Assembly: GCA_963655625.1 (NCBI GenBank)
Contig: CAVKFX010000003.1
Location: 1-32,338, forward strand
Reading direction: 5' to 3'
Source: an uncultured Eubacteriales bacterium
GTDB taxonomy: Bacteria > Bacillota > Clostridia > Oscillospirales > Oscillospiraceae
Length of the DNA: 32,338 nucleotides
This document shows, one piece after another, positions 10,508 to 30,934 of the stretch. The notes below the pieces were generated by a model that worked only from the letters and a program-made list of their open reading frames with translations, was not told the origin of the DNA and ran no database searches. How positions within the stretch are numbered: the first letter of the stretch is position 1; each line of letters begins with the position of its first letter. A program made the position numbers and the translations under genes.

Positions 10508-10521
10508 AGCGTTTTCTCCCC

Positions 10522-11976: not shown

Positions 11977-12076
11977 GGGGGTACTCCTTTCGTGTTTGAG
12001 AGATAAAAATGGGAGATCTGCTCCGCATTTTACAGCGACACGCCGGATCTCCCAATTGTTCCGCGCAGGCGGAGAA

Positions 12077-14141: not shown

Positions 14142-14163
14142 GTAAGACACCTCGCTTCATCCG

Positions 14164-15063
14164 TTAAGATTTCAGGTGCGGATCCATGGCATCCCGGAGA
14201 CCGTCGCCCACCAGGTTGACGGAGCAGGCGGTGATGACGATGGCCAGGGCGGGGAAGACCAGCATGTGAGGCGCTACACGCATATACTCGCGGGCATCGG
14301 AGATGATCTGGCCCCATTCGGGAGCGGGTGGCGGCATGCCTAGGCCCAAAAAGCCAAGGGTGGACTCATAGAGGATGATCTTGGCCACGTTCAGAGTCGT
14401 GTTGACAATGATGACGCCCATGGCATTGGGGAAGATATGGGAGAGGATGATGCGGGCGCTGCTGGCGCCGCCGGCCTTGGCCGCTTCCACATACTCAAGG
14501 TCTGACAGACTGAGGATCTGAGAGCGGACCAGGCGCACATAGTTGGTGAAGTAGGCCAGGGTCAGAGCGATGACCAGGTTCACGGTGTTGGCACCCAGGG
14601 CGAACACCACGGCCATGGTGAACAGAATGTCCGGCACGGACATGAAGATGTCCAGGCCGCGCATGATGATGCTGTCCACCTTGCCGCCGAAGTAACCGGC
14701 GATGGCACCCAGGGCACAGCCCACCACGCAGGAGGACAGGGTGGCCAGCACGGCGATGGCGATGGAGGTGCGGCCGCCGTAGAGCACCCGGGCCAGCAGG
14801 TCACGGCCATAGGAGTCCAGGCCGAAGATGTGCTCGGCAGAGGGGGTGGCCAGCTTCTGAGACAGATTCTGGGTCACGGCGGAATCATAGGTGGCGAACA
14901 GGTTGGCGAAGATCAGAAAGAAGGCGATGAGACACAGCATCACAAGGCCGATCATGGAGCCGGGGTTCTTGCGGAAGCGGCGCCAGATCTCCTTGAGCTG
15001 GCTGGGCTTTTTGAACTTGATGGGCTCGGCAGCGGCAGCCGCGGGCGTTACTTTTTCACTCAT
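14164..15063 (-). CDS. Oligopeptide/dipeptide ABC transporter permease (OppC/DppC type)
   Basis: HIFGLDSYGRD, YVEAAKAGGAS (EAA loop), PEWG and NLVGDGLRDAMDP motifs. AAGGAGG SD. Confidence 0.93.
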   Translation of the reverse strand: MSEKVTPAAAAAEPIKFKKPSQLKEIWRRFRKNPGSMIGLVMLCLIAFFLIFANLFATYDSAVTQNLSQKLATPSAEHIFGLDSYGRDLLARVLYGGRTSIAIAVLATLSSCVVGCALGAIAGYFGGKVDSIIMRGLDIFMSVPDILFTMAVVFALGANTVNLVIALTLAYFTNYVRLVRSQILSLSDLEYVEAAKAGGASSARIILSHIFPNAMGVIIVNTTLNVAKIILYESTLGFLGLGMPPPAPEWGQIISDAREYMRVAPHMLVFPALAIVITACSVNLVGDGLRDAMDPHLKS

Positions 15064-15075
15064 ACGGCTACCTCC

Positions 15076-16017
15076 TTATCCTTTAACGCGGGTGTACTTG
15101 GCCTTGATGCGGGGATCTACGAAGGCGTAGATGATATCCACCAGCAGCATGATCGCCGTGAATGTAATGGAGATGACGATGGTGCCGGCGATGATGACCG
15201 GCTCATCCTTATAGGCGATACGGTCCACGATCAGCGCGCCGATGCCGGGGACGGAGAACAGACGCTCTGCCACCACGGCACCCATGATGAGGCCGCCCAT
15301 GTTCAGGCCGATGTTGGTGATGACCGGCAGGAGGGCGTTTTTCAGAGCGTGCTTCCAGATGACGGTGCGCTCCGTGGCACCCTTGGCCCGGGCGGTATCG
15401 ATATAGTCGGCGCGGATGGACTCCAGCATGGAGGATTTGGTGAACCGGACATTAAATGCCGTTACGGGGATGGCCATGCACAGCGCCGGCATGATATAGC
15501 TTTTCCAGGTGGCTAAGCCATAGGATGGCAGCCAGTTCAGTTTCAAAGAGAAAATCAGCAGCAGCGACATGCCCAGCACGAAGGACGGGATGGCCGCCAG
15601 AAGAAACGCCAGAACAGAGGGAACATAGTCCCAGACGGAGTATTGCTTCACTGCGGTGAGGATGCCTAAGGGCACGCCCACCAGGGTTGAGATGATGATG
15701 CCGATGACGGACAGCTTCAGCGTGACGCCGAAGCGGGGCAGCACCTCGTCTGCCACGTCCTGACCGGTGAAATAGGAGGTGCCGAAGCTCTGGTCAACGA
15801 CCAGATTTTTTACATAGCGGGCGTATTTTACCAAAAGAGGATCATTATAGCCCAGCTCTTCATTCAGCTGGTCCACTGCTTCCTGAGGAGCGGACACGCC
15901 AAGGATAGATCTACCGGGATTGCCGGGGGTAAGGTTCAGCACGAAGTAGATGATGAAGATAACACCCAGGATCGTCGGTATCAGGAACAAAATGCGTTTG
16001 AGTACATACCGATACAC
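15076..16017 (-). CDS. Oligopeptide/dipeptide ABC transporter permease (OppB/DppB type)
   Basis: PGNP, DYIDTARAKG, HALKNALLP and DIIYAFVDPRI motifs. AAAGGAGG SD precedes GTG 16017. Confidence 0.93.
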   Translation of the reverse strand: MYRYVLKRILFLIPTILGVIFIIYFVLNLTPGNPGRSILGVSAPQEAVDQLNEELGYNDPLLVKYARYVKNLVVDQSFGTSYFTGQDVADEVLPRFGVTLKLSVIGIIISTLVGVPLGILTAVKQYSVWDYVPSVLAFLLAAIPSFVLGMSLLLIFSLKLNWLPSYGLATWKSYIMPALCMAIPVTAFNVRFTKSSMLESIRADYIDTARAKGATERTVIWKHALKNALLPVITNIGLNMGGLIMGAVVAERLFSVPGIGALIVDRIAYKDEPVIIAGTIVISITFTAIMLLVDIIYAFVDPRIKAKYTRVKG

Positions 16018-16042
16018 AGCATATCCTCCTTTCATTTAAATT

Positions 16043-16075
16043 GAGCGGCAGGACAGGCGTGCTGCCCTGCCGCTT
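16043..16075 (-). other. Intercistronic stem-loop after the substrate-binding protein gene
   Basis: Minus strand AAGCGGCAGGGCAG-cacgc-CTGTCCTGCCGCTC, no long U-tract. Confidence 0.65.
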
Positions 16076-16112
16076 TGGTTTGATAGGGGATAGGGATTTG
16101 CGGGGGGAGAGG

Positions 16113-17675
16113 TCAGCTGGCGGAGACCCAGCTGAAGTTTCTGACCTTGTAGTAGGTGGGAACGGGGGTGCCCACATCCAGGTCATCGGCCCAGACGATG
16201 GCCACAGGACGGTTGATCAGGGGCAGGATGGTGGCGGTATCCATGATCATGGACCACAGCTCGGTGTAGTAGGTCATGCGCTCATCCTGCTTGGCAGTGC
16301 CGGCGCCCAGGGCGACCAGCTCTTCCATACGCTTCCAGTTGAACTTGTCACCGATGGTGTAGTTGATGACGTACATACCAACGGACTCGCTGTGGACCTG
16401 CTGACGGATGTTATTGAAGTCGTAGTTGCCGGAGTCGCCGTAGACGCAGATGTCATAGTCCTGAGCCTGCCACTTTTCAACGGCCATGGACACGTCCAGC
16501 ATCTCCACCTTGGCATGGATGCCGACGGCTTCTAGATCAGCCTGGAGCACCTGGGCGGTCTTGGAGTTGTGGGCGGAGCTGGTGGTCAGAATGGTGCCCA
16601 CATCCACACCGTCGGGATAGCCGGCCTCGGCCAGCAGGGACTTGGCCTTATCGGGGTTGTAGGCATAGGTCTCAAAGCCGGTGGTGGGCTGGGTGGGGCA
16701 GTACTCGGGAACCATGTAGGTATCGGTGGCCTTGCCGTAGCCCTCGGCCACAGCCAGGTTCACGTCTTCCTTGTTGATGGCGTAGAACATGGCCTTGCGG
16801 ACCAGGTCGTTATTCAGAACGGTGGCGTTCTTGCTGGCATAGTTGATGCCCATCCAGATGACGTTGTTGCCGGTGACCATGGCGCTGTGAGCGTCGCCGG
16901 CCTTCTTATACAGGGAGTCCCAATCGGACAGAGCTGCTTCCTCGTAGTAATCCAGCTCGCCGTTCTCATAGGCGATGACGGCGGCGGCGGAGTCAGCGAA
17001 CACGCGGTACTCAACCTTCTTGATGTTGGGAGCGCCCTGCCAATACTTGTCATAGGCGGACAGCTTCGCACCGGTGGAGACATCGTATTCGGTGACATAA
17101 TAGGCACCGGTGCCGGCGGTGTTGGGGATGGTGCCGAACTTATCGCCCTGCTGGGTCACTTCGTTCTCCTCCACGATCTTCACGCGGAACAGGGTGTGCG
17201 CGATGGGAGCGTAGGCATACTTCATGTGGATGACGAAGGTCTGGTCATCGGGAGCTTCCACACTGTCGATCATGGTGGTCAGGTAGGTCATGTTGGCGTT
17301 CTTGAAGGCACGCTCATAGGTGAACACGCAGTCGGAAGCGGTGAGAGCCTCGCCGTTCTGGAAGGTGATGCCGTCCTTGAGGGTGATGGTGTAGGTCATG
17401 GAGTCGTCGCTGACTTGAACGTCCTTGGCCAGCTCGTTGTAGTAGCCGCCCTCGGCTTCGTTCATGCCGTACAGACCCTCATAGATCTGGTCATAGAGCT
17501 TGATATCGTGGGTGTTATTGCTGTTTGCGGGGTCAAGGGTAGTGAATGCGGTTTCGGCTCTGAGGACCAGAGTCTTTTCGCTGGGATCGGTGTTGTCGTT
17601 GGTTTTCTTGCCGCAACCGGCCAGAAGACCCAGAGTCATGACGACTGCGAGGCAAAGCGCGATAATCTTTTTCAT
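16113..17675 (-). CDS. Family 5 (OppA/DppA) ABC substrate-binding lipoprotein
   Basis: Signal peptide II MKKIIALCLAVVMTLGLLAG-C; LDP, IYEGL, LKDGITFQNG, GTGAY, VRKAM and AKSLLAEAGY motifs. AAAGGAG SD. Confidence 0.93.
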   Translation of the reverse strand: MKKIIALCLAVVMTLGLLAGCGKKTNDNTDPSEKTLVLRAETAFTTLDPANSNNTHDIKLYDQIYEGLYGMNEAEGGYYNELAKDVQVSDDSMTYTITLKDGITFQNGEALTASDCVFTYERAFKNANMTYLTTMIDSVEAPDDQTFVIHMKYAYAPIAHTLFRVKIVEENEVTQQGDKFGTIPNTAGTGAYYVTEYDVSTGAKLSAYDKYWQGAPNIKKVEYRVFADSAAAVIAYENGELDYYEEAALSDWDSLYKKAGDAHSAMVTGNNVIWMGINYASKNATVLNNDLVRKAMFYAINKEDVNLAVAEGYGKATDTYMVPEYCPTQPTTGFETYAYNPDKAKSLLAEAGYPDGVDVGTILTTSSAHNSKTAQVLQADLEAVGIHAKVEMLDVSMAVEKWQAQDYDICVYGDSGNYDFNNIRQQVHSESVGMYVINYTIGDKFNWKRMEELVALGAGTAKQDERMTYYTELWSMIMDTATILPLINRPVAIVWADDLDVGTPVPTYYKVRNFSWVSAS

Positions 17676-17773
17676 ACTCTTACTCCTTTATTTTAGTGGG
17701 TAAGCAAACCGGTGGGCTTTCGCACACCGACCCGCTTTGCGGCAGGGCCGCCCCTTACGGGTGAAATGAGGGA

Positions 17774-18379
17774 TCAGTATTTTTTGCCTTCTTTATAGCT
17801 GGGGAGGTCTTTCTTTTTCTGGTAATTGGGCATCTTGCAGCGAAACGTACACTTGTCGTCGCCCCGGGTGAGGATCTTCTCCTGCACCACTACGGTGTCC
17901 TCGTGATAGGCGGTCCACATGGCGTGGTGGATCTCCTCGCAGTAGACCACAGCGGCATCCATCAGGTCGTACTTCTTCCACAGGTCATACATATCGCATT
18001 CGTCCAGATCGGAATAGAAGTCGTCCTTCTCAAAGATCTGGCGGCAGGTCTCCTGGTCGTCATCGCCGGGCAGGTCCGCGTAAACGTGGAGGTTCTGCAT
18101 GTTCAGCTCCAGGCCATAGTGCAGCTGGCGCTCCCGCTGGGCAGTGCCGCGGATCTTTCCAAAATCACGCAGGGCCCGGCGGACCACCTGCTCACCCTCG
18201 GCTCCGAAGGAATCGATCACGCGCTGGGCAATGAAACCATAGATGAGGGTGTAGAAATCCTTCATGACGGCGACCTCACTCTTGTTGTCGTCCATCTTGA
18301 AGTCGGGCACTTCCTTTACGTAGGCATCCTTCTGGAAGGACGCCGTATCCACTTTCTTTTCGTTGTTGTCCATCTTCAT
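17774..18379 (-). CDS. L-2-amino-thiazoline-4-carboxylate (ATC) hydrolase-family protein; true function unknown
   Basis: FG.EG...VR.A...FG..RG N-terminal pattern plus C....W, YC and L.RGD..C.F Cys motifs typical of the ATC_hydrolase/V4R-like family. AGGAAGG SD. Confidence 0.75.
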   Translation of the reverse strand: MKMDNNEKKVDTASFQKDAYVKEVPDFKMDDNKSEVAVMKDFYTLIYGFIAQRVIDSFGAEGEQVVRRALRDFGKIRGTAQRERQLHYGLELNMQNLHVYADLPGDDDQETCRQIFEKDDFYSDLDECDMYDLWKKYDLMDAAVVYCEEIHHAMWTAYHEDTVVVQEKILTRGDDKCTFRCKMPNYQKKKDLPSYKEGKKY

Positions 18380-18510: not shown

Positions 18511-18538
18511 AATTGTCGATATTATATTGTCGACAATT
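18511..18538. promoter_or_regulatory. Tandem operator 1 (putative GntR/FCD site)
   Basis: aaTTGTCGATAttataTTGTCGACAAtt: two units 14 bp apart, the second a perfect palindrome, directly downstream of the promoter at 18545-18573. Confidence 0.75.
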
Positions 18539-19016: not shown

Positions 19017-19062
19017 TGACCCGGCGGGATCTTCGGAAGCTGCCGAAGATCCCGCCGGGTCA
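19017..19062 (-). terminator. Intrinsic terminator of the oxidoreductase-ligase-aminotransferase-racemase operon
   Basis: Perfect 20-bp inverted repeat TGACCCGGCGGGATCTTCGG-aagctg-CCGAAGATCCCGCCGGGTCA, followed on the minus strand by ATTTT; 35 bp past the racemase stop. Confidence 0.8.
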
Positions 19063-19097: not shown

Positions 19098-19799
19098 TCA
19101 GTCCAGCACAGTGCCGCCGGCGAAGCGGATGGCTCCTTTGGCAAGCTCCAGTGTGGGGTCGATGGCCGGGAAGGTCAGGTGATACAGTTCCATGGCCGGG
19201 GGAAGCTCGGTGCATCCCAGCACCATGGTTTCGGCGCCTTGCTGCTGCAGACGAGCGGCAGCGGCCTCTACAGCGGCGGTGTCATAGACAGTGGCGCCGG
19301 CCTTTACGCCGCGATAGATCATGTCCATGACGGCCTGCTGGCCCGCTTCGTCCGGGGTGAGCAGAGTGATGCCGAATTTTTCGGCCACGGCGGCGTAGAC
19401 ACCGGTCTGCACAGTGCCGTTGGTGGCCAAAAGGCCCGCCTTGCGGATGCCCCGGCGCTGCATCTCCTGACAGGTCAGCTCCAGCATATTCAGCAGAGGA
19501 ATATGCACGGAGGACTGCACCTGGGCATGGAAGCAGTGGGCTGTATTGCAGGGCATAATGAGACAGTCGGCCCCGTCAAACTCCAGCATCCGGGCGCTTT
19601 TCTGCATCTGGGGCAGGGGATCCTCCCCGCCCCGGAGCAGGGCGGCGGTGCGGTCGGGAATGGCGGTGTTGTTATCGATGATCACGTGCAGATGGTCCTG
19701 GTCGCAGGCGGCCCGGGTATGGGTGACGATCTTGCGGAACAGGTCCGCCGTGGCCAAAGGGCCCATGCCGCCGATGATGCCGATGGTTTTCTTGTTCAT
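19098..19799 (-). CDS. PLP-independent aspartate racemase-family protein (Asp/cysteate racemase clade)
   Basis: IGIIGGMGPLAT, DQDH, IPDRT, PCNTAH, LATNGT, IY.GVKAG and GCTEL; both catalytic Cys present. GGAGG SD. Confidence 0.9.
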   Translation of the reverse strand: MNKKTIGIIGGMGPLATADLFRKIVTHTRAACDQDHLHVIIDNNTAIPDRTAALLRGGEDPLPQMQKSARMLEFDGADCLIMPCNTAHCFHAQVQSSVHIPLLNMLELTCQEMQRRGIRKAGLLATNGTVQTGVYAAVAEKFGITLLTPDEAGQQAVMDMIYRGVKAGATVYDTAAVEAAAARLQQQGAETMVLGCTELPPAMELYHLTFPAIDPTLELAKGAIRFAGGTVLD

Positions 19800-19819
19800 A
19801 GGCATGCCTCCCCGAAGGC

Positions 19820-21004
19820 TCAGTGGAGAGCGGCCAGGGCCTGGGCGATGCGGTCAAAGCCCCGCCGGATCTCGGACATGGAATTGGTATAGGCGATGCG
19901 GATGGCACCGGGGGCCATGAAGGCGCCGCCGGGCACCACGGCCACATGGTACTGCTGCAGCAGATACTCACTCATGGTAAAGGAATCGGTGATGACGTGG
20001 GTGCCGTCGGTCTTGCCATAGTACCAGCTGACATCCGGCATCAGGTAAAAGGCGCCGTCGGGCTTGGTGCAGGTGACGTGGGGCAGTCCGCAGGCCCGCT
20101 CATAGGCGTAGTCGCGCCGGGCCACAAACTCGGAGACCATCTCCCTTACACCTTCCTCGCCGTGCTCCAGGGCCTCCAGGGCGGCCCACTGCACAAAGGT
20201 GGTGCTGTTGGAGGTGACGTGGCTCTGCAGGGCGCTGATGCCCTTGGCCAGGGCCAGGGGAGCGGCAGAGTAGCCGATGCGCCAGCCGGTCATGCGGTAG
20301 GCCTTGGACATGCCGTTGATGACGATGGTGCGCTGATAGATCTCCGGGGACAGGGAGGCGATGGAGATATGGCGGGCATCGCCGTAGAGGAGCTTTTCAT
20401 AGATCTCGTCGGCGATGACGTACAGGTCCTTCTCCACAGCCAGCTGAGCGATAGCCTGGAGGCTCTCCAGGCCGTACACGGCGCCTGTGGGGTTATTGGG
20501 GGAGTTGATGATGATGGCGGCGGTCTTATCGGTGACGGCCCGACGGATGGCGTCCAGGTCCAGCTGGAGATCCGGGGTGCAGGGAACGCACACGGGCACG
20601 CCGCCCACCAGCTTGACCATCTCCACATAGCTGACCCAGCCCGGAGTGGGGATGATGACCTCGTCGCCGGGGTTGGTCACGGCCATGACGGCATTGAACA
20701 GGGCCTGCTTGGCGCCGGTGGAGACGCAGATCTGCTCCGGGGTATAGGTCAGGCCGTTGTCCCGCTGCAGCTTGGCGCAGATAGCCTGGCGCAGCTCGGG
20801 GATGCCGGCGGTGGCTACATAGGTGGTTTTGCGGGCGTCCAGGGCGTCCTTGCAGGCGTCGCAGATGGGCTCGGGGGTCTTAAAATCCGGCTCGCCGATA
20901 TTCAGGGCCACCACGTCGATGCCCTCTTTTTTCATGCTGCCGATGAGTCCCTCCAGCTCACAGGTGGCGGAGGGCGTAATATTGCCGACAATTTTACTGA
21001 TCAC
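19820..21004 (-). CDS. Class I PLP aminotransferase (AspC/aspartate aminotransferase-like)
   Basis: GEPDF, GAKQAL, NSPNNPTG, DEIY, SKAYRMTGWRIG (PLP Lys), GAFY and IRIAY. AAGGAGG SD precedes GTG 21004. Confidence 0.92.
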   Translation of the reverse strand: MISKIVGNITPSATCELEGLIGSMKKEGIDVVALNIGEPDFKTPEPICDACKDALDARKTTYVATAGIPELRQAICAKLQRDNGLTYTPEQICVSTGAKQALFNAVMAVTNPGDEVIIPTPGWVSYVEMVKLVGGVPVCVPCTPDLQLDLDAIRRAVTDKTAAIIINSPNNPTGAVYGLESLQAIAQLAVEKDLYVIADEIYEKLLYGDARHISIASLSPEIYQRTIVINGMSKAYRMTGWRIGYSAAPLALAKGISALQSHVTSNSTTFVQWAALEALEHGEEGVREMVSEFVARRDYAYERACGLPHVTCTKPDGAFYLMPDVSWYYGKTDGTHVITDSFTMSEYLLQQYHVAVVPGGAFMAPGAIRIAYTNSMSEIRRGFDRIAQALAALH

Positions 21005-21032
21005 AGGGGCCTCCTTACTCAAATAAAACGGA

Positions 21033-21230
21033 TCATTCCACGTAAATGGCGAAGTCGGGGCACATTTTCTCACATTTCTTGCACTTGACGCACTGGTCCT
21101 CCCGGACGGCGGCGGCATAGTTATAGCCCTTCTTATTCACGTGATGGGTGATTTCAAACACTTGCTTGGGACACAGAGTGACACACATGCTGCAGCTCTT
21201 GCACAGCTCCTGGTCGATATATACGGACAT
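21033..21230 (-). CDS. 2[4Fe-4S] ferredoxin / 2-oxoacid oxidoreductase delta subunit
   Basis: CKSCSMCVTLCP and CVKCKKCEKMCPDFAI motifs; NKKGY linker typical of KorD-like subunits. Confidence 0.92.
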   Translation of the reverse strand: MSVYIDQELCKSCSMCVTLCPKQVFEITHHVNKKGYNYAAAVREDQCVKCKKCEKMCPDFAIYVE

Positions 21231-21233
21231 GGA

Positions 21234-22112
21234 TCAGCCCTCCTTATTCAGTAACAAACGGACCTGCTCCGCCAGCTGGGTGGGGCTGGTCACTACATGC
21301 ACACCTGCGCTCTGCAGGGCCGCAATCTTGGTGGCGGCGGTGCCTACATTACCGCTGACGATGGCACCGGCGTGGCCCAAGCTCTTGCCGGTGGGGGCAT
21401 TGCGCCCCACGATGAGAGACACCACGGGCTTGGTGACATGGTCGCGGATATACGCGGCGGCTGCCTCCTCGGATCCGCCGCCGATCTCACCCAGCAGCAC
21501 GATGACCTGGGTATCCGGGTCCTGCTGGTACAGGGCGATGGCGTCCTTCTGGGTGAAGCCCCACATGGGGCCGCCGCCGATGGCGACGACGCCGGACTGG
21601 CCGATGCCCCGGTCGGTGAGGGTCTTGCCGATCTCATAGGAGAGGGCGCCGCTCTTGGAAACGATGCCCACATGGCCCTTTTGGAAGAAGCGGACCGGGT
21701 GGGCGCCTACCTTGCACACGCCCGGGGCGATGACGCCGGCGCAGCCGGGGCCCACCAGGATGGTGCCGTGGGCCTTGGCATAGGAGATGATCTCCACCAC
21801 GTCGTGCAGGGCAATTTCCTCCGTGGTGAGGACCAGGAGGCGGATGCCGGCGTCGATGGCTTCAAAGCAGGAGTCCTTGGCCACCCGGGGCGGGACGAAG
21901 CAGATGACAGCGTCAAAATCGTGGGCGCGCTTGGCCTCGGCCACGTAGTTATACACGGGGATGCCGCAGACCTCCTGGCCGCCCTTGCCGGGGGTGACGC
22001 CGGCGACGATGTTGGTGCCGGCGTCCAGCATGGCCTTGGCCTGCAGGGAGCCGGATTTGCCGGTGATACCCTGGACCATGACCCGGGTATTTTTATCAAT
22101 GAGGATAGACAT
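21234..22112 (-). CDS. sucD: Succinyl-CoA synthetase-like ADP-forming acyl-CoA ligase, alpha subunit
   Basis: VQGITG, GVTPGKGG, VSKSGALSYE, GEIGG and GHAGA (phospho-His) motifs. Substrate not established. Confidence 0.88.
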   Translation of the reverse strand: MSILIDKNTRVMVQGITGKSGSLQAKAMLDAGTNIVAGVTPGKGGQEVCGIPVYNYVAEAKRAHDFDAVICFVPPRVAKDSCFEAIDAGIRLLVLTTEEIALHDVVEIISYAKAHGTILVGPGCAGVIAPGVCKVGAHPVRFFQKGHVGIVSKSGALSYEIGKTLTDRGIGQSGVVAIGGGPMWGFTQKDAIALYQQDPDTQVIVLLGEIGGGSEEAAAAYIRDHVTKPVVSLIVGRNAPTGKSLGHAGAIVSGNVGTAATKIAALQSAGVHVVTSPTQLAEQVRLLLNKEG

Positions 22113-22115
22113 GCT

Positions 22116-23237
22116 TCAGCCCTCCTTTACAGCGGCGGCCACGGCGGCCACGGTTTCCGTGAGATCGTCAAAGGTGGTCATGCCGTGCTCGTGCATGATA
22201 CGGATGCCCTCCTCCTGCATGGTGCCGCACATCCGGCAGAATACCGGCACGGTGACGTTGTGCTCCCGACAGTAGTCGGTGAGGCCCTTGGCCATGTTAT
22301 CCATGCGGTTGAAACCGCCGATGAGCACCACGATCACGGCGGAGATGTCCGGGTGGTTCTGCAGGGTCAGCTCCATGGCCCGGTACATGACCTCCGGAGT
22401 GGTCATGCCGCCCAGCTCGCAGAAGCTGGAAACGGAGAGACCGGCGTCATGCAGCAGGTCCAGGGTCAGCATGCCGGTGCCGGCGCCGTCGGAGATCATG
22501 GCCACATTGCCCTCCAGGGGGACATAGGTGATGGTGGTGGCCTCCTTTTCGGGGGCGGCGTAGCGGTACAGACTGCTGCGGGCTTCCTCCAGCCGCCGGC
22601 AAAGGTCCGCGGCGGAGGCGGCGTGGTCGTCCAGAACGAACTTGGAGTCCATGGCGATGAGGCGGCCGTCCACCAGGCCCAGGGGGTTGATCTCCACCAG
22701 CAGGGCACCGGTGGTGAAAAAGGCGGTCTGGAGCTTATCCAGCAGGGCGTACACATCGGCCTTGTCCGCCGCCTGCAGGGTCTGGGCGATCTGGCGCTTC
22801 TGGTAGTCCTTGAGGCCCGTGAAGGGGTCGATCTCCAGCTTCAGGATCTCCTCCGGGTGCTCCCGGGAGACCTGCTCAATGTCCATGCCGCCCATGGCGC
22901 TGACGATCAGCGTGGGGGTGGAGACGCCCTGAAGGGTGATGGAGAGATAGAACTCCCGCTGAGGCTTTAGCATCTCCTCGGCCAGCAGGCCGTGGACGGG
23001 ATGGCCCTTGATGGTCATGTGCAGGATATCCCGGGCATAGCGGGTATACTCGTCTTCCGTGCGGCAGACCTTTACGCCGCCGGCCTTGCCGCGGCCGCCG
23101 GTCATGACCTGGGCCTTCAGCACGAAGGGGAGGTCCATGGGGGCGGGGGCGTCTGCGGAGGTGAGCAGATGGCTCTGGGGGACGGGAATATCGAACCGGC
23201 CCATGAGCTGCTTGCCTTCATATTCAAATAAATTCAT
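22116..23237 (-). CDS. sucC: Succinyl-CoA synthetase-like ADP-forming acyl-CoA ligase, beta (ATP-grasp) subunit
   Basis: MNLFEYEGK, KAQVMTGGRGKAGGV, GGMDIE and EINPL motifs. The C-terminal acid-binding motifs diverge. Confidence 0.88.
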   Translation of the reverse strand: MNLFEYEGKQLMGRFDIPVPQSHLLTSADAPAPMDLPFVLKAQVMTGGRGKAGGVKVCRTEDEYTRYARDILHMTIKGHPVHGLLAEEMLKPQREFYLSITLQGVSTPTLIVSAMGGMDIEQVSREHPEEILKLEIDPFTGLKDYQKRQIAQTLQAADKADVYALLDKLQTAFFTTGALLVEINPLGLVDGRLIAMDSKFVLDDHAASAADLCRRLEEARSSLYRYAAPEKEATTITYVPLEGNVAMISDGAGTGMLTLDLLHDAGLSVSSFCELGGMTTPEVMYRAMELTLQNHPDISAVIVVLIGGFNRMDNMAKGLTDYCREHNVTVPVFCRMCGTMQEEGIRIMHEHGMTTFDDLTETVAAVAAAVKEG

Positions 23238-23255
23238 ATGTCACCGCCTTATCCG

Positions 23256-23816
23256 TTACCCGTGATAGTACAGGTCATTGTCCTTGGCGTAGGCGATACC
23301 GGCCTTGGCGGCCTTGAGGTTCAGCTCTACGAAGCGGGGGTTGACCTGGGTGCGGATCACGTCCATCAGGTCCTCCTCCTTCAGCATGCCGAGACACTCG
23401 GACAGGAAGCCCAGCACCACCATGTTGGCGGCCATACGGTTGCCCAGGTCCACGGCAATCTGGGTGGCGGGGACGGCAAAGGTATGGGCGATGGGACGGG
23501 TCAAATTGGTGACCAGCTGGGGGTCGATGACCAGGACGCCGTCTTCCTCCAGGGTGGGGATGTACTTTTCATAGGCGCTCTGGAACAGGGCCACCAGCAG
23601 GTTCTTCTCCTGGGCTACCGGGGAATTGATGGGGGTCTTGTCGATAATCAGCTCGGCCTGGCACTGGCCGCCCCGGGCCTCGGAGCCGTAGGACTGGGTC
23701 TGCACGGCGTACAGGCCGCCCTTGGTCACGGCGGCGGTGCCCAGCATCACGGCGGTGAGGATGATACCCTGGCCGCCGAAGCCGCACAATGTGATCTTCT
23801 GAGGATATTGCAGCAT
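23256..23816 (-). CDS. 2-oxoacid:ferredoxin oxidoreductase gamma subunit
   Basis: GFGGQG, QTQSYGSEARGG, ANMVVLG and NLKA motifs. Confidence 0.92.
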   Translation of the reverse strand: MLQYPQKITLCGFGGQGIILTAVMLGTAAVTKGGLYAVQTQSYGSEARGGQCQAELIIDKTPINSPVAQEKNLLVALFQSAYEKYIPTLEEDGVLVIDPQLVTNLTRPIAHTFAVPATQIAVDLGNRMAANMVVLGFLSECLGMLKEEDLMDVIRTQVNPRFVELNLKAAKAGIAYAKDNDLYYHG

Positions 23817-23830
23817 ATCTCGTTCCTCCC

Positions 23831-24643
23831 TTATAACGGCATGTTGGTGCCGGCGTAGATGGGCTTATCCACACAGAGGAAGTTGCCCAGGGCCAGCTTG
23901 CCTTCTTTTTCTTCGTCGGTCATCTGCGCGCCCTTGGCCTGGGGGTAGGTGACGCTCTGGATATACTCCGCCACCTTCATGGGGTCACCGGTCTTCAGAG
24001 CGTAGCGGCCATAGTGGGTGGGGCACTGGGAGACGATCTCGATGAGGGAGAAGCCCTTGTGCTGCAGGGCGCGCTCCATGGCCTGCTTGCACTGCAGGGG
24101 CTGCATGGTGGTCCAGCGCTCCACGTGGGTGGCGCCGGCGGCCAGGGCCAGCTTGCACACGTCGAACCGGGGCTCGCCGCTGCCGTAGGGGGTGGTCATG
24201 GTGCGGGACTCCTCCGGAGTGGTGGGCGCCACCTGGCCGCCGGTCATGGCGAAGTTCATGTTGTTCACCATGACTACGGTCACGTCCAGGTTGCGGCGGC
24301 AGGACTGGATCATGTGGTTGCCGCCGATGGAGACCAGGTCGCCGTCACCGGCAAAGATCACCACGGGCAGCTCCGGGCGCATCATCTTTACGCCGGTGGC
24401 CCAGGCCAGGGTGCGGCCGTGGACGCCGTGGAACATGTCGGTCTTGATATAGATGGGGATGCGGGCCGTGCAGCCCACGCCGCCGATGTGCAGCATCTGC
24501 TCGGGGTCCATGTGCAGCTCATCCAGGGCCTGGATGTAATAGTTCAGCACCTGGCCGCAGCCGCAGCCGGCGCAGAAGAAGTGAGGAAGCTTTTCCTTGC
24601 GCAGATATTTCCGCAGGGGGTTGATCTTCAGCTGGTCTGCCAT
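23831..24643 (-). CDS. 2-oxoacid:ferredoxin oxidoreductase beta (TPP/Fe-S) subunit
   Basis: FCAGCG, GVGC, HGR, GDGD..IGGNH, NN..FAMTGGQVAPT and CP motifs. Confidence 0.93.
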   Translation of the reverse strand: MADQLKINPLRKYLRKEKLPHFFCAGCGCGQVLNYYIQALDELHMDPEQMLHIGGVGCTARIPIYIKTDMFHGVHGRTLAWATGVKMMRPELPVVIFAGDGDLVSIGGNHMIQSCRRNLDVTVVMVNNMNFAMTGGQVAPTTPEESRTMTTPYGSGEPRFDVCKLALAAGATHVERWTTMQPLQCKQAMERALQHKGFSLIEIVSQCPTHYGRYALKTGDPMKVAEYIQSVTYPQAKGAQMTDEEKEGKLALGNFLCVDKPIYAGTNMPL

Positions 24644-24644
24644 G

Positions 24645-25814
24645 TTACTTCGTCTCCTCTCTGATCACGTTATAGATCTCCTCAGAGGTGTGGATCTGAC
24701 CTCTGTTCTTGGTGACGGGGACCACCGGGCACTTGCCGGCGGCCACCCGGGTGATTTCGTTGACATAGCGGCCCATATTCATTTCCACGGCAAAGATCCT
24801 GGAAACATTGCCGGCTACCTCCCGGATGGCCTTTTCGGGCACGGGCCAGATGTTGCACAGCTTCAGCACGCCCACCTTCACGCCGCTCTCACGGGCCATC
24901 TGGGCGGCCTCGATGGAGGGGCGGACCTCGCTGCCGTAGGTGACGATGGCGTAGTCGGCATCGTCCATCATGAACCGCTCGGTGCGGCAGATGTCGTCGG
25001 CATTTTCCCGGATCTTGCCGCACACACGGCGGTACAGCCGCTCAAAGTCGTCGGGATCCCAGTCGATGCCGCCGCGCTCATTGTGGGGGTTCAGGGAGTA
25101 GATGGTCTTATAGCCCTTGCCCAGGGGGGCGAAGTCGGGGCAGCCGTTTTCCGGCGCGCCGAAGGGGAGGTAATCCTCCGGGGCGGCGGTGGTATACTTG
25201 CGGTTGAAAAGCTCGATCTTGTCGGCGGAGGGGATCTCCAGGCGCTCACGCATCAGGGCGATGGTGGCCTCGGACATGACAATGACGGGGTTACGGTACT
25301 TTTCCGCCAGGTTGAAGGCCCAGATGGTGTAATCATACAGCTCCTGCACGGAGGAGGGGCACACCACAATGGCCTCATAGTCACCGCTGCAGCCATAGCG
25401 GAGCTGGTAGACATCCGCGTAGGTGGCGAAGTTGTCGCCCCGGGTACGCATAACATCGGCCACCACCACGGGCGCCTCGATGGTATAGCAGTAGCCCAGG
25501 CCCTCCTGCATGTAGTTAAAGCCGGCGCTGGCGGTGGCGGTCATGACTTTGCCGCCGGCCAGAGAGGCTCCGGCCAGAGCGAAAATGGAGCACAGCTCGT
25601 CCTCGCCCTGGACAAATTGACCGCCTACCTGCGGCAGCCGCTGGGACATACGCTCGGAAATTTCATTGGCGGGAGTGATGGGATAGCCGGCAAAGAAGTT
25701 GCAGCCGGCGCTGATGGCACCTTCCACAAGAGCATAGTTGCCAAGCATAAAATGCACGCCGCTGTCTACGCGCTTTTCCCATGCGTCCAGCTGATTGGCC
25801 CGAATGATCGACAT
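24645..25814 (-). CDS. 2-oxoacid:ferredoxin oxidoreductase alpha subunit
   Basis: GNYA, AGYPITPA, EDE, TATA..GF.YMQE, AEKYRNPV, YGS and VEMNMG motifs. Confidence 0.93.
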   Translation of the reverse strand: MSIIRANQLDAWEKRVDSGVHFMLGNYALVEGAISAGCNFFAGYPITPANEISERMSQRLPQVGGQFVQGEDELCSIFALAGASLAGGKVMTATASAGFNYMQEGLGYCYTIEAPVVVADVMRTRGDNFATYADVYQLRYGCSGDYEAIVVCPSSVQELYDYTIWAFNLAEKYRNPVIVMSEATIALMRERLEIPSADKIELFNRKYTTAAPEDYLPFGAPENGCPDFAPLGKGYKTIYSLNPHNERGGIDWDPDDFERLYRRVCGKIRENADDICRTERFMMDDADYAIVTYGSEVRPSIEAAQMARESGVKVGVLKLCNIWPVPEKAIREVAGNVSRIFAVEMNMGRYVNEITRVAAGKCPVVPVTKNRGQIHTSEEIYNVIREETK

Positions 25815-25875
25815 GGCATAATTCCTTTCTCTTTAAATAAGCTGGTCGGGTCTGTCACAGGATGAATAAAAAATA

Positions 25876-25900
25876 CTGTCGACAATATACAATCCGACAA
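25876..25900. promoter_or_regulatory. Tandem operator 2 (putative GntR/FCD site)
   Basis: cTGTCGACAAtatacaATCCGACAA, directly downstream of the promoter at 25905-25933. Confidence 0.72.
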
Positions 25901-25904
25901 GACA

Positions 25905-25933
25905 TTTATACATGAAAATAAGGAGGTTGTCAA
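25905..25933 (-). promoter_or_regulatory. Sigma-A promoter of the oxidoreductase operon
   Basis: Minus strand TTGACA-17 bp-TATAAA. Confidence 0.7.
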
Positions 25934-25946
25934 CCCTTTTCTTAAA

Positions 25947-25981
25947 CGGCGCTGCCGCAGAATATCTCTGCGGCAGCGCCG
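25947..25981 (-). terminator. Stem-loop / probable terminator after the D-aminoacylase gene
   Basis: Perfect 15-bp inverted repeat CGGCGCTGCCGCAGA-atatc-TCTGCGGCAGCGCCG with a short TTT tail on the minus strand. Confidence 0.7.
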
Positions 25982-26007: not shown

Positions 26008-27531
26008 TTAGTTATTGACCTTGGTTTCGCCCAGCACCCACACACGGCGGATGCCCACGGGGGGGATGGCAGGCTCCAGATAGGAGTTGGCGGAGTTGAT
26101 GGTGGCCGGGTCGAACAGGACCAGGTCGGCATCCATGCCCCGGCGGATCAGGCCCCGGTCCCACAGACGCAGGCGGCGGGCCGGCTCGGAGGTGATGTGG
26201 CGGATGGCCTCCTCCAGAGGCATGACCTGCAGATCCCGGACATAGTGGCCCAGGAAGCGGGGGAAGGAGGCGTAGGCCCGGGGATGGGGATGCGCGCCCA
26301 TAATGCCGTCGGTGCAGACGCAGTGGGCGTCGCTCTTCATGACATAGATGACGTCGTCCTCGGAGATGGAGAAATAAATGGCGATGACCTCGGGGCCCTC
26401 GTGCTGCAGGATGTGCAGCACGGCGGTGCCCACCTCCATGCCCAGCTTTTCGCTGATGTAGTCCATCTTTTGGCCGGCCATCCAGGCGTATTCCTCCGTG
26501 GCGACGGAGGCCAGCATGATGCACTCGGCGCCGCCCCGGGCCTGGATCTCGTCCTGGGTCTCCTTGAGGATCTTCTGATAGGTGTCCGGATCCTTCAGGC
26601 GCTGCTGGAAGCCCTGCTCGCCGCCATCGTAGGCCCACTGAGGCACGCAGACCTTCAGCCCCGTGCAGGCGGCGGTCCAGGGGTACTGGTCCAGGGTCAC
26701 GTCGTAGCCCTGGGCGCGCATGGCGTTGATGGACGCCATGGACTGGTGGACCTTGCCCCAGTTCCGGGGGCCCAGGGCCTTGTGGTGGGAGATCTGCAGG
26801 CGGACGCCGCTCTCCCGGACGATGGTGTTCATCTCCTCCACGGACTCCAGGAGTTTGTCCTTCTCACTGCGCATATGCACCATGATGAGGCCGTCGTAGG
26901 CGGCCACCACCTTGGCCATTTCAATAAGCTCCGGGGTCTGGGCGAAGCTGCCGGGAGGATAGATAAGACCCAGGGACATGCCCTTGGCGCCCTGCTCCAG
27001 GCAGCGGGCCAGCAGGGCCTTCATCTGCTCCAGCTCCTGGGCGGTGGGCTCCCGGTTATCGTTGCCCATAACGTTCATGCGGATGGTGCCGTGGCCCACC
27101 AGGCCCACAAAGCGGGCGGAGGGATGGGCGTTTTCCACGGTCTGCTCATAGTCGGCGAAGGAGCGCCAGGTATAGGGGCCGGGGATGGTGCCGGCCAAGG
27201 GGGCCATGTTGTCGGCCAGCTCCTGGACCAGGTCGTCGGTCAGGGGCGCCACGGAGGAGCCGTCCTGGCCCAGAACTTCCGTAGTGATACCCTGCTGCAC
27301 CACCTGGGGCAGGGCGGGGTTGCGGATGAGCTCCAGCTCGTTATGGCTGTGGGTGTTGATGAAGCCGGGGGCCAAAGCCAGACCGGCGGCGTCCACCACC
27401 TCCCAATCGCTCTGGGGGGGGATGACACCGATCTGAGCGATGACGGAGCCGCCGATGAGAACATCGGCGTGGAAGGGCTTGCAGCCGGTGCCGTCATAGA
27501 CGGTGGCATTCCGGATCAAAGTTTTTTTCAA
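26008..27531 (-). CDS. N-acyl-D-amino-acid deacylase (D-aminoacylase) family protein
   Basis: DGTG, APGFINTHSH, QGITT, GLIYPPG, HMRSE, QISHHK, DQYPWTA, TDG, HPRAY.SFPR and ADLVLFDP motifs. AAAGGAGG SD precedes TTG 27531. Confidence 0.92.
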   Translation of the reverse strand: MKKTLIRNATVYDGTGCKPFHADVLIGGSVIAQIGVIPPQSDWEVVDAAGLALAPGFINTHSHNELELIRNPALPQVVQQGITTEVLGQDGSSVAPLTDDLVQELADNMAPLAGTIPGPYTWRSFADYEQTVENAHPSARFVGLVGHGTIRMNVMGNDNREPTAQELEQMKALLARCLEQGAKGMSLGLIYPPGSFAQTPELIEMAKVVAAYDGLIMVHMRSEKDKLLESVEEMNTIVRESGVRLQISHHKALGPRNWGKVHQSMASINAMRAQGYDVTLDQYPWTAACTGLKVCVPQWAYDGGEQGFQQRLKDPDTYQKILKETQDEIQARGGAECIMLASVATEEYAWMAGQKMDYISEKLGMEVGTAVLHILQHEGPEVIAIYFSISEDDVIYVMKSDAHCVCTDGIMGAHPHPRAYASFPRFLGHYVRDLQVMPLEEAIRHITSEPARRLRLWDRGLIRRGMDADLVLFDPATINSANSYLEPAIPPVGIRRVWVLGETKVNN

Positions 27532-27578: not shown

Positions 27579-27602
27579 TGTCGAATACATACAGTCGACA
27601 AT
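27579..27602. promoter_or_regulatory. Tandem operator 3 (putative GntR/FCD site), shared by two opposed promoters
   Basis: TGTCGAAtacatacAGTCGACAAT; GTCGA cores 14 bp apart as in operator 1. Confidence 0.72.
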
Positions 27603-27614
27603 ATACGTAAGCAA

Positions 27615-27782: not shown

Positions 27783-28931
27783 ATGGACGAGTACAGCGAA
27801 TTGTTTCAGTTATTAAAGAAAATGGTATCTTTCCCGTCTACGGACGGAAATGAAGCGGGCATCAGCGACTTCCTGGCGGAAAATGCCCGGGTTATGGGAA
27901 TGGACCTGGTGGAGCAGCAGGAGGCGCTGCCGGGCCTGAAAAACGTCATCGCCGTAAAGACCTTCGGCCGGGGCGGCAAGCGGATCGTGCTCAACTCCCA
28001 CATGGATGTGGTGCCCCCGGCGGACGGCTGGGATACGGACCCGTATGACCTGGTCATCAAGGGCGACCGGGCCTACGGCCGGGGTTCCACCGATGCCAAG
28101 GGCCCCCTGGCGTGCCTGACCATGGCGGTGAAGCGGATCATTGAGAACCCGGAGGGGGTCAACGGCACCATCGTATATACCGCCGTGGTGGACGAGGAGA
28201 GCCACTCCACCGGCGCCAGGACCCTGGTGAAGCACCCCCAGGTGTACGGCGACTACTGCATCGTGGGTGAGCCGACTCTCTCCCGGGTGGCGGTCAGCCA
28301 CAACGGCAGCCTGCGGCCGGTGATCGTGGCGGAGGGGCTGTCCGTCCATGCCTCCAACCCGGAGCTGGGCATCAACGCCATCCGCATTGCGGCCTACATC
28401 TCCCAGCTGGTGGATGAGATCGCAGATGAAATTTCCGGCATTGTGCATCCTGCAACGGGGAAGCCGTCCATTGCCATCACCATGATCTCCGGCGGCGTGC
28501 AGGAGAACGTGGTGCCCGACCGCTGCGAGATCACCATCGACCGGCGCATGGTGCCGGGGGAGGATGAACAGCAGCTGCGCCGGCGGTTTGACCGGCTGTG
28601 CCAGGAGGCCCAGGAGCATTTCCCCGGCAGCCGGGTCTATGTGGACCATTATCTGGTCACCACCGGCCCCGCAGCGGAGACCCCGGCGGACAGCGAGCTG
28701 GTGCAGACCGCCTTTGCCGCGGCTAAGGCGGCCGGCGGGGAGGACCAGGAGCCCTTCGGCCTGACCTGCAACACGGATATGAACCACTTTACCCGCGCGG
28801 GCATCCCCACGGTGATCATCGGTCCGGGGACCATTACGGTGGCCCACAAGCCCAATGAATACGTGGCTCTGGAGCAGCTGGAAAAGACCTGCGCCGTGGA
28901 TGAGGCGGTCATTCGGGCGCTGCTGAAATAA
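27783..28931 (+). CDS. M20A metallo-deacylase (ArgE/DapE-like)
   Basis: LNSHMDVV, GRGSTDAKG, VDEE, GEPT, HAS.P..G.NA, NVVPD, DRR and AHKPNE motifs. AAAGGAG SD. Confidence 0.92.
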   Translation: MDEYSELFQLLKKMVSFPSTDGNEAGISDFLAENARVMGMDLVEQQEALPGLKNVIAVKTFGRGGKRIVLNSHMDVVPPADGWDTDPYDLVIKGDRAYGRGSTDAKGPLACLTMAVKRIIENPEGVNGTIVYTAVVDEESHSTGARTLVKHPQVYGDYCIVGEPTLSRVAVSHNGSLRPVIVAEGLSVHASNPELGINAIRIAAYISQLVDEIADEISGIVHPATGKPSIAITMISGGVQENVVPDRCEITIDRRMVPGEDEQQLRRRFDRLCQEAQEHFPGSRVYVDHYLVTTGPAAETPADSELVQTAFAAAKAAGGEDQEPFGLTCNTDMNHFTRAGIPTVIIGPGTITVAHKPNEYVALEQLEKTCAVDEAVIRALLK

Positions 28932-28950
28932 GAGGAAGGGAGAGAGCGGT

Positions 28951-30102
28951 ATGTCTTGCGGTTTGGAAAATGCCAACACCGTGGTGACGGTGGACCTGGG
29001 AAAGGTGCGGCGCAACATTGAGCGCATCCGCAGCCATATTGGCCCCGATGTTGACATTATGTACACGGCCAAGTCCAACGGCTACGGCCACGGACTGATC
29101 CGGCCTACCCTGTTCATGCGCGACAAGTGCGGCATCCACTGCTTTGCCACCGGCCAGCTCAGCGAGGCGCTGGAGCTGCGGCAGGCGGGGCTGGAGGATT
29201 TCATACTGGTGCTGGGGGGCATCCCCTACAGCGGTGTGCCCGCCTTCGTGGCAAACGACCTGGTGGCCACGGTGTATGAGGATACGCTGCCCCGGGCACT
29301 GAATGAGGAGGCGGCCCGGCAGGGAAAACGCGTGCGGGTACACATTAAAATAGACACGGGGCTGCGGCGATTCGGCGTGCAGCCCGGCGAGCAGCTGGCG
29401 CACCTGATGGAGACGCTGCGGGGCCTGCCCTACCTGGAGATAGACGGAGTATATACCCATCTGGCCAACGGCTACTCTTTGGACAAATCCTTTACCCACC
29501 GGCAGATGGGCCTGTTCACCCAGGCACTGGAGCAGCTGAAGGCGTCGGGGATCCGGCCCCGGCTCGTCCACGCGGCCAATACGGCGGCCTGCGTGGCCTC
29601 CCCGGAGTGTTACTACGATGTGGTGCGCCTGGCGGCGCTGATCTTCGGCTATGACATCTCCCCCGGCATCCCCAACCGGCTGAGCCTGGAGCCGTCCATG
29701 CGCTGGACCAGCAAGATACTGAACGTGCTGTGGGCCGAGGAGGGCGAAAATGTCAGCTACTACCGGTTTTTTGTGCCCAAGCGCCCCACGAAGATCGCCA
29801 TCATCGGCTTCGGCATGGGCGACGGATATTACCGGGGCCTTGTGACCCGGGACACCGAACACAATGCCGACGTGCTGATCCACGGCCAGAGAGCGCGGTT
29901 GCTGGACCTGAACGTGGATGTAGCCTTTGCCGATGTGACGGACATACCCGACGTGCGGATCGGCGACACGGCGGTGCTCATCGGCCAGGACGGCCGGGAC
30001 GAGATCACCTCCATGGAACTGGGCGAAAAGGGCGGCACGTCCAACGGGCACATTTGCTGCTCCATCACCGGCCGCCCCCTGCGGTACTATATCAATGAGT
30101 GA
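28951..30102 (+). CDS. Alanine racemase-fold PLP enzyme with a divergent substrate pocket
   Basis: AKSNGYGHG (PLP Lys41), EALELR, HIKIDTGL.R.G, YTHLA, HAAN, VSY (Tyr270) and G.GDG motifs. Confidence 0.88.
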   Translation: MSCGLENANTVVTVDLGKVRRNIERIRSHIGPDVDIMYTAKSNGYGHGLIRPTLFMRDKCGIHCFATGQLSEALELRQAGLEDFILVLGGIPYSGVPAFVANDLVATVYEDTLPRALNEEAARQGKRVRVHIKIDTGLRRFGVQPGEQLAHLMETLRGLPYLEIDGVYTHLANGYSLDKSFTHRQMGLFTQALEQLKASGIRPRLVHAANTAACVASPECYYDVVRLAALIFGYDISPGIPNRLSLEPSMRWTSKILNVLWAEEGENVSYYRFFVPKRPTKIAIIGFGMGDGYYRGLVTRDTEHNADVLIHGQRARLLDLNVDVAFADVTDIPDVRIGDTAVLIGQDGRDEITSMELGEKGGTSNGHICCSITGRPLRYYINE

Positions 30103-30826: not shown

Positions 30827-30844
30827 TTTGTTTTTTGCCAGCTG

Positions 30845-30873
30845 TTGACAAAGTATACAGAAAAGGTTAGAAT
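30845..30873 (+). promoter_or_regulatory. Sigma-A promoter of the GntR gene; the -35 lies within an operator-like TGTTGACAA
   Basis: TTGACA-17 bp-TAGAAT; context cTGTTGACAAAGTATACAG. Confidence 0.7.
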
Positions 30874-30934
30874 GGAAAATGGAAATCAGGACCAATCTCA
30901 GAAATAATCACGGCCTGTAAATATAGGTGTAGTA

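Follow-up and report, generated by a model that had tools for sequence, protein, structure and literature searches.

A conserved oxidoreductase and CoA ligase operon with altered active sites in anaerobic bacteria, and its possible role in the conversion of aspartate to malonate

A stretch of 32,338 nucleotides from an uncultured Eubacteriales bacterium (GenBank assembly GCA_963655625.1, contig CAVKFX010000003.1; referred to as the window, and contig C3 of a genome of 1.09 Mb that is 55% complete) carries an eight-gene operon on the minus strand at positions 19098–25814. It encodes a 2-oxoacid:ferredoxin oxidoreductase (OFOR), an ADP-forming coenzyme A (CoA) ligase, an iron-sulfur protein, an aminotransferase and a racemase. 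Automatic annotation names such a cluster kor plus sucCD, which leads to false calls of the tricarboxylic acid (TCA) or reverse TCA cycle in gut and sediment genomes. The operon is not a canonical kor-sucCD pair or a TCA fragment: its gene content and order, a regulon motif, its conservation, the separate clades of its enzymes and their altered motifs are all directly observed. Its aminotransferase, OFOR and ADP-forming ligase very probably oxidise an acidic amino acid to gain ATP, and the operon is likely to be catabolic and to act on something other than glutamate for the formation of succinate. The best reading of substrate, direction and products, put forward tentatively, takes aspartate through oxaloacetate and malonyl-CoA to malonate plus ATP.

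The eight open reading frames (ORFs) are separated by 1–28 nt, and matches to Pfam and NCBIfam models agree with the families of all eight, confirming the gene order of the first-pass annotation. OFOR is encoded by oforA (24645–25814; the α subunit, of a distinct subfamily recognised by family models, a motif and an α-subunit profile), oforB (23831–24643; the thiamine diphosphate (ThDP)-binding β subunit, assigned by family models and structure alignment) and oforG (23256–23816; the γ subunit, assigned by family models). These are followed by the genes for ligase β (22116–23237; SucC-like, in a clade of its own according to models, motifs and trees) and ligase α (21234–22112; SucD-like, by models and motifs), a 2x[4Fe-4S] protein (21033–21230), a class Ib aspartate aminotransferase (AspAT; 19820–21004) and a two-cysteine, pyridoxal phosphate (PLP)-independent racemase of the aspartate type (19098–19799), with the start codons of the last two picked by their spacing to the ribosome site. 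The gene initially called a ferredoxin does encode a 2x[4Fe-4S] protein, but its best model is OGOR_delta (74 bits, below the cut-off of 125), and its product is probably the OFOR δ subunit or the OFOR electron acceptor. No further TCA enzyme is found among the 40 window ORFs scanned, as had been claimed, and neither a second ligase nor a second OFOR α was found in the source genome at its 55% completeness.

For comparison, 113 loci were assembled (labels L### for loci and G### for genomes are names used within the analysis), comprising 30 from a scan of GTDB, two from a search of 400 genomes of the class, 80 from metagenomes (the best of 501 matches), and the window. The GTDB scan gave 49 loci, of which the 19 with distant, mostly canonical ligases are excluded from the counts. 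Complete loci, defined by genes for OFOR α, OFOR β/γ and both ligase subunits, number 74; locus counts are floors and are not independent, as sequences are truncated and many loci are close kin. The order of the OFOR and ligase genes is identical in all 74, which also contain an aminotransferase (49), an Asp-type racemase (42), a GntR regulator (34), a D-aminoacylase-family gene (26), an ArgE-family deacylase (21), TauE (2) and glutamate dehydrogenase (GDH; 2).

The OFOR is Kor-like and of the four-subunit type according to family models and alignments, and its matches in the ESM Atlas carry generic OFOR names only. The β subunit keeps an arginine aligned to Arg63 of the 2-oxoglutarate:ferredoxin oxidoreductase (OGOR) of Magnetococcus (6N2N chain B), a residue that we take to bind the distal carboxylate. 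In the α subunit, the GGPSTG loop that follows a conserved arginine in Kor-type proteins is replaced by a fixed RG[ED]N loop that is four residues shorter and brings in a second invariant arginine, with more fixed changes nearby. The α subunit forms a long separate branch in the tree and lies below the OorA model cut-off (285 against 579), while a profile of the subfamily scores members at 673–788 bits and non-members at 389 at most. The proposed phylogenetic comparison with canonical enzymes thus sets α apart from the Kor type. Operons of anaerobes that encode KorDABC and SucCD (L083, L091 and L092 among them) share with the module the folds, a four-subunit OFOR, its position beside the ligase and the β arginine. 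They differ in that the module places its δ gene after the ligase, has the shorter α loop and a rewritten succinate site, and falls in separate clades; both types can coexist in one genome.

The ligase resembles SucCD in keeping the phospho-histidine loop (GHAGA) with its catalytic histidine and the ATP-grasp motif (GGRGKAGG). Its α subunit passes both SucD cut-offs (358 against 336 for one of them). The β subunit falls below both SucC cut-offs (282 against 370, and 265 against 376) and far below that of the malate-CoA ligase (MtkA) model (212 against 604). The succinate site consists of a GIV motif in β with a tyrosine and an asparagine in α (PMC11489063). In the module, the equivalent of GIV is GFN in 71 of the 113 loci, GLT in five and GMT in two, the remaining 35 having no call because the gene is missing or truncated or escapes the pattern, and DGAG replaces NGAG in all aligned β subunits. 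In α, the asparagine is changed to glycine (GPN to GPG in the window; aspartate in the GLT/GMT group), a methionine in the substrate loop is changed to histidine, and the tyrosine is kept, so that conserved succinate-site residues are replaced in every module ligase aligned. The bulkier phenylalanine and the added histidine and asparagine would suit a shorter, polar acid.

In a midpoint-rooted tree of 76 β-plus-α pairs, including 27 hand-picked module pairs, the module ligases form one clade (SH-aLRT 100) apart from the canonical, SauCD-like and HpfYZ-like ligases, with GFN and GLT/GMT subclades, and a β-only tree with library representatives agrees on the module clade (support 0.986). The references are stand-ins identified by context rather than assayed SauCD or HpfYZ proteins; those for SauCD (L085–L088) were picked by the presence of an acylating dehydrogenase, joined at two loci by a tripartite tricarboxylate transporter. 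The phylogenetic comparison proposed in the first-pass annotation separates the ligase from SucCD and from the SauCD-like stand-ins, in a tree that holds no MtkAB sequence and no true SqwKL stand-in. Clusters of an aldehyde dehydrogenase, a ligase and an E1 protein (L084 and others) were considered as SqwDKL and rejected, the neighbour being an E1 of the pyruvate dehydrogenase type.

SauCD and SqwKL (PMC10413351, PMC12890257) are, like the module ligase, SucCD-derived ADP-forming ligases with shifted specificity, and SauCD has 7% activity on malonate (PMC10413351). They pair with an acylating aldehyde dehydrogenase, whereas the module ligase pairs with an OFOR, and the SauCD-like stand-ins occupy another clade and have other motifs. 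The 3-sulfopropionate-CoA ligase HpfYZ (PMC11489063) shares with the module an asparagine as the last residue of the motif equivalent to GIV, which in HpfY is proposed to bind the sulfonate, but its signature is GIN in β with histidine for tyrosine in α, whereas the module has GFN, keeps the tyrosine and carries further changes. These comparisons bear on cysteate fermentation, in which D/L-cysteate would be converted through sulfopyruvate and sulfoacetyl-CoA to sulfoacetate plus ATP, by a ligase that acquired its sulfonate specificity independently of SauCD and SqwKL. We consider this unlikely. A dedicated route would be sensible for sulfopyruvate, which cannot lose its tail as CO2, and the extra OFOR arginine and the ligase asparagine, histidine and tyrosine could bind a sulfonate; against this, the ligase lies outside the SauCD-like clade and has neither the SauCD motifs nor the HpfZ histidine.

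The racemase was described at first as of the Asp type, and more precisely is of the Pyrococcus horikoshii aspartate racemase (AspR) type. AspR is its best solved match (PDB 1JFL, E 2e-61), and both catalytic cysteines are kept together with residues aligned to Arg48 and Lys164 of AspR, which presumably bind the β-carboxylate. It also passes the CuyB model NF052483 (237 against a cut-off of 190), a point for cysteate that was rejected as non-discriminating, since a context-identified CuyB from a cysteinolate-type cluster fails (175) and one of 14 control genomes passes. AspR, CuyB (PMC11193023) and the module racemase belong to a common two-cysteine family; the module racemase differs from CuyB in having no CuyA partner and in motifs that match AspR, the window protein being 41% identical to a CuyA-linked CuyB (L104) and different from it at two motifs. 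Because the account of CuyB (PMC11193023) reports no test of aspartate as a substrate in the parts covered, the racemase family alone cannot separate aspartate from cysteate.

The wider loci add little positive support for cysteate. Queries like CuyA, HpsN and SauS each gave 0 of 113 loci. TauE lies inside the operon at L005 and L010, the only two of the 113 loci to have it, which counts in favour of cysteate, but it is generic (present in 13 of 14 control genomes) and two of the five carrier genomes, G062 and G065, have none above the cut-off. Also in favour of cysteate, three racemases of GLT/GMT loci are sisters of context-identified CuyBs (SH-aLRT 95 and 100). A ThrC-like neighbour was rejected as cysteate synthase (100 against a cut-off of 325), and a DegT-like neighbour as CuyC (22% identity to a context-identified CuyC, at one locus only). 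The cysteate branch is thus weaker than the first-pass annotation implied.

As an AspAT of class Ib, the aminotransferase is ordinary: its best matches are among the solved members of that class, and it keeps the conserved lysine motif (GAKQ). It would serve aspartate, glutamate or cysteate. Acidic residues in its N-terminal helix were considered as a sign of an amine substrate and rejected, as a Phormidium AspAT has an acid there too. The presence of AspAT in place of GDH (an aminotransferase is found in 49 of the complete loci, GDH in two) suggests that the substrate is not glutamate, the oxidation of which would be expected to need GDH.

Glutamate is the substrate in the conventional interpretation, a divergent Kor and succinyl-CoA synthetase that convert it (including D-glutamate from cell-wall or γ-glutamyl peptides) to succinate plus ATP, which we regard as quite unlikely. 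Consistent with it are the Kor-like grouping of the OFOR with its β arginine, the SucD scores of ligase α, the more SucC-like motif of the GLT/GMT subclade and the glutamate-side neighbours of some loci; the PepD, Opp and alanine-racemase-family genes of the window would also fit salvage of cell-wall peptides. However, ligase β fails both SucC cut-offs, one of which the canonical paralogue in G062 passes with a score of 481, the succinate site is altered in all members, and AspAT and an Asp racemase would be expected to consume rather than supply 2-oxoglutarate. Furthermore, a canonical kor-suc operon coexists with the module in G061 and G062, two of the five carrier genomes tested. This coexistence and the parallel fixed changes in OFOR and ligase together argue for a substrate other than 2-oxoglutarate and succinate.

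In the conversion of aspartate to malonate, peptides, N-acyl compounds and D-forms would be the sources of aspartate, made available by the co-regulated transporters, peptidases and deacylases, the racemase would convert D-aspartate to L-aspartate, and the aminotransferase would produce oxaloacetate. OFOR would then use oxaloacetate to reduce ferredoxin, with malonyl-CoA and CO2 as the other products, and ATP would be formed as the ligase releases malonate. The three-step logic, and the reduced ferredoxin, are those of the Thermococcales and of the oxidative branch of Stickland fermentation, where an aminotransferase, an OFOR and an ADP-forming acyl-CoA synthetase convert an amino acid via a 2-oxoacid and an acyl-CoA to an acid plus ATP; in the module, by contrast, a single operon holds all the genes and includes a racemase, and the ligase is of the SucCD type instead of the ACD type. 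To our knowledge, no aspartate or cysteate version of such a fermentation has been described, and the open-access literature yielded no publication on this cluster or on an OFOR specific for oxaloacetate or sulfopyruvate. The fermentation logic is known; what is new is the two enzyme subfamilies and their inferred substrate. It is possible, although a conjecture at this stage, that the OFOR is the first one dedicated to oxaloacetate and the ligase the first ADP-forming malonate-CoA ligase, and that organisms from gut Clostridia to sediment anaerobes use them to ferment aspartate, recovered from its D-, iso- and N-acyl forms, to malonate.

Aspartate and malonate are chosen because of the racemase type, the aspartate enzymes scattered around the loci and the chemistry reported in a preprint for another ThDP enzyme, which makes malonyl-CoA from oxaloacetate (10.1101/2022.10.28.514148). 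That activity, the oxaloacetate dehydrogenase activity of Streptomyces BkdFGH, is a side activity of a lipoyl- and NAD-dependent complex in an aerobe, whereas the enzyme of the module would be dedicated to the reaction, use ferredoxin and be coupled to the formation of ATP. Apparent use of oxaloacetate by pyruvate:ferredoxin oxidoreductases may be an artefact of its decay to pyruvate (PMC13768988). The enzymes of aspartate and C4 metabolism that exceed curated cut-offs at single loci are aspartate carbamoyltransferase (L186), an M18 aminopeptidase (L189), a type Ic AspAT (L005), aspartase (L031), fumarate hydratase (L148) and an aspartate dehydrogenase-like protein (L119); the fumarase is a split one, and a malate-racemase-like protein also points to C4 acids. 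Supply of malonyl-CoA for fatty acids was rejected as the main role, as four of the five carrier genomes have AccA-family matches.

Several points weigh against aspartate as the substrate and malonate as the product. The main weakness is that oxidation of oxaloacetate via pyruvate to acetate would give equal ATP with common enzymes, so that a dedicated malonate route has no obvious advantage. Neither subfamily has a characterised member, and function is read from sequence. Cysteate is a substrate of Asp-type racemases and AspAT as well, and CuyBs nest among the module racemases, next to the three GLT/GMT-locus proteins described above. The asparagine of GFN matches the sulfonate-binding asparagine proposed for HpfY (PMC11489063). 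Each aspartate or C4 pointer is found in one or two loci, mostly one, and some are divergently transcribed, while the glutamate side is represented by Glu-racemase-like proteins (4 of 113), PxpA-like proteins (3 of 113) and single cases of a γ-glutamyl transferase, a peptidase C26 and a Na+/glutamate symporter. Where the ligase could be typed, the Glu-racemase-like and PxpA-like cases occur mostly with the GLT/GMT subclade, the OFOR loop of which is identical. No malonate transporter recurs across the loci, the malonate decarboxylase α subunit was not found in the five genomes, apart from one weak partial match, and many of the loci are close kin.

The fixed polar changes in both active sites would also fit an extra substituent on the substrate, such as in 4-hydroxyglutamate (giving malyl-CoA and malate), 3-hydroxyaspartate (giving tartronate), 3-methylaspartate or phosphonoalanine. 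Neighbouring PLP enzymes (threonine-dehydratase-like in 5 of 113 loci, ThrC-like in 7 of 113), RraA-type and DHDPS-family aldolases, a class V aminotransferase and many racemase families are in keeping with such a substituted acidic amino acid. The proposal is nevertheless doubtful, as the racemase resembles a standard Asp racemase, the score with the malate-CoA ligase model is low, and no single compound explains all neighbours. Operation in reverse, with the ligase activating a dicarboxylate, OFOR carboxylating it and the aminotransferase producing glutamate or aspartate, is highly improbable. Every step is reversible in principle, and SauCD runs in the activating direction in Bilophila (PMC10413351), but co-regulation with uptake systems and amino-acid-releasing hydrolases fits catabolism.

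Whatever the substrate, the two enzyme subfamilies that the module defines are uncharacterised and can be recognised by clear signatures in their sequences. If aspartate is converted to malonate, it would represent a new substrate class for OFORs, an ATP-free anaerobic route to malonyl-CoA and a microbial source of malonate, which is an inhibitor of succinate dehydrogenase. If cysteate is the substrate, it would give H2S-producing Bilophila a new source of sulfoacetate.

Carriers of the module are labelled Oscillospiraceae, Lachnospiraceae, other Clostridia, Desulfovibrionaceae, Deltaproteobacteria and Anaerolineaceae, and include the cultured strains Lientehia hominis NSJ-141 and Fusibacillus kribbianus YH-rum2234; no publication on the physiology of the cultured carriers was found. 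The module is rare: with the α-subunit profile, four of 401 genomes of the phylum (including that of the window) reach the 673–788 bits of members, the next best being 389. The ligase was found in none of the 36 same-genus genomes searched, and a module-type ligase occurs in only one of 251 genomes of the family of G061. One copy (L004, 200–13893) is 92–100% identical and lies on a contig titled Barnesiella intestinihominis, while its closest matches are titled Oscillospiraceae, possibly the result of mis-binning or transfer.

The operon was claimed to have its own promoter, operator and terminator, and candidates for all three are present. A σ70-like promoter on the minus strand (25905–25933), with a perfect −35 element, a 17 nt spacer and five of six −10 positions, was read by eye; the consensus promoter scan gave no entry for it. 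Downstream of this site lies an operator-like palindrome centred on GTCGAC (about 25873–25888) that is kept in relatives, and an intrinsic-terminator-like hairpin of 20 pairs with a T-rich tail, identified by a hairpin scan, closes the operon (19017–19062, minus strand). Further copies of the palindrome at about 18524–18537 and 27589–27604 make up the only three matches in the 1.09 Mb genome, and the three precede the oforA operon, a downstream Opp unit and an upstream D-aminoacylase-family gene. In the comparison set, 71 loci have a gap upstream of oforA, and 24 of them carry the palindrome core there; it is found in 0 of 29 loci without such a gap and in 0 of 562 coding control windows.

The D-aminoacylase-family amidohydrolase (26008–27519, minus strand) has its own hairpin (25947–25981). 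The Opp unit (8903–18376, minus strand) encodes an ATC-hydrolase-family protein, an Opp/Dpp ABC transporter, a PepD-like dipeptidase and an amidohydrolase. A divergent unit (27783–31639, plus strand), assigned by family models, encodes an ArgE/DapE-family deacylase, an alanine-racemase-family enzyme, a YczE-like membrane protein and, at the end of the region, a GntR/FCD regulator that is likely to be the repressor acting at the GTCGAC operator. The eight genes appear to form the centre of a larger regulon, spanning about 23 kb, to which peptide uptake, a second racemase and the peptidases and deacylases also belong. This second, alanine-racemase-family gene (28951–30102) is 31% identical to a copy on contig C51 of the genome and is present in 10 of 113 loci; at L122, a gene of the family lies directly 3' of the δ gene. 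A resolvase or recombinase fragment is located at the start of the contig (19–591).

Across the loci, most neighbours encode amidohydrolases, peptidases, amino-acid transporters or racemases of many families, which points to the salvage of amino acids that are N-acylated, cyclic, bound in peptides or in the D-form. Two neighbours were considered as members of the Bhc pathway and rejected, an ornithine-cyclodeaminase-family protein as BhcD (66 against 500) and an alanine-racemase-family protein as BhcC (22 against 690). The Glu-racemase-like proteins at L032, L189 and L192 (and L180, where the gene is split) have an aspartate after the second catalytic Cys-Thr, where glutamate racemases usually have a histidine. 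The GLT/GMT-type modules of L170 and L181 are surrounded by PxpA, corrinoid proteins and methyltransferases resembling MtmB and MttB, which suggests that the feedstock is an acidic amino acid with an N-methyl group. L148, L149, L157, L162 and L169 have neither the aminotransferase nor the Asp racemase in the locus and share a tail of genes of the D-aminoacylase family, ureidoglycolate-lyase-like genes, DUF6282 genes and often FrhB-like ones, through which a ureido compound may be turned directly into the 2-oxoacid.

A variant of the module at L129, L145, L146 and L211 combines the same OFOR subfamily (with β and γ fused where called), the δ gene and AspAT in the absence of the ligase, and is preceded by a hydantoinase- or allantoinase-like gene and a hydantoin racemase; longer loci of this kind add D-aminoacylase-family and RraA-type genes. 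If oxaloacetate is the OFOR substrate, such ligase-less variants (L129, L145 and L146) could provide malonyl-CoA without acetyl-CoA carboxylase.

Other clusters that combine an OFOR or a dehydrogenase with a SucCD-like ligase were also encountered. In the family of G061, a different operon of OFOR and ligase (L089, 2119–10898, in G092; L090, 4879–9763, in G304) has the full HpfYZ signature in its ligase (GIN, and histidine for tyrosine) and a tryptophan at the Arg63 position of OFOR β, and at L089 is accompanied by a DASS transporter and a FAD-linked 2-hydroxyacid oxidase pair. It is a candidate for a route between a C4 2-hydroxy or 2-oxo sulfonate and 3-sulfopropionate. A recurrent cluster of Clostridia (L084, L095, L096, L097, L100, L101 and L103) encodes an acylating aldehyde dehydrogenase and a SucCD-like ligase of a separate clade together with E1 and E2 (and in some cases E3) proteins of the pyruvate dehydrogenase type, often with a GntR regulator. 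An operon in G541 (L098, 7704–15901) pairs an OFOR with a ligase that groups with this clade, and is flanked by genes for malic enzyme, an M20 hydrolase, a sodium:solute symporter and an amidohydrolase.

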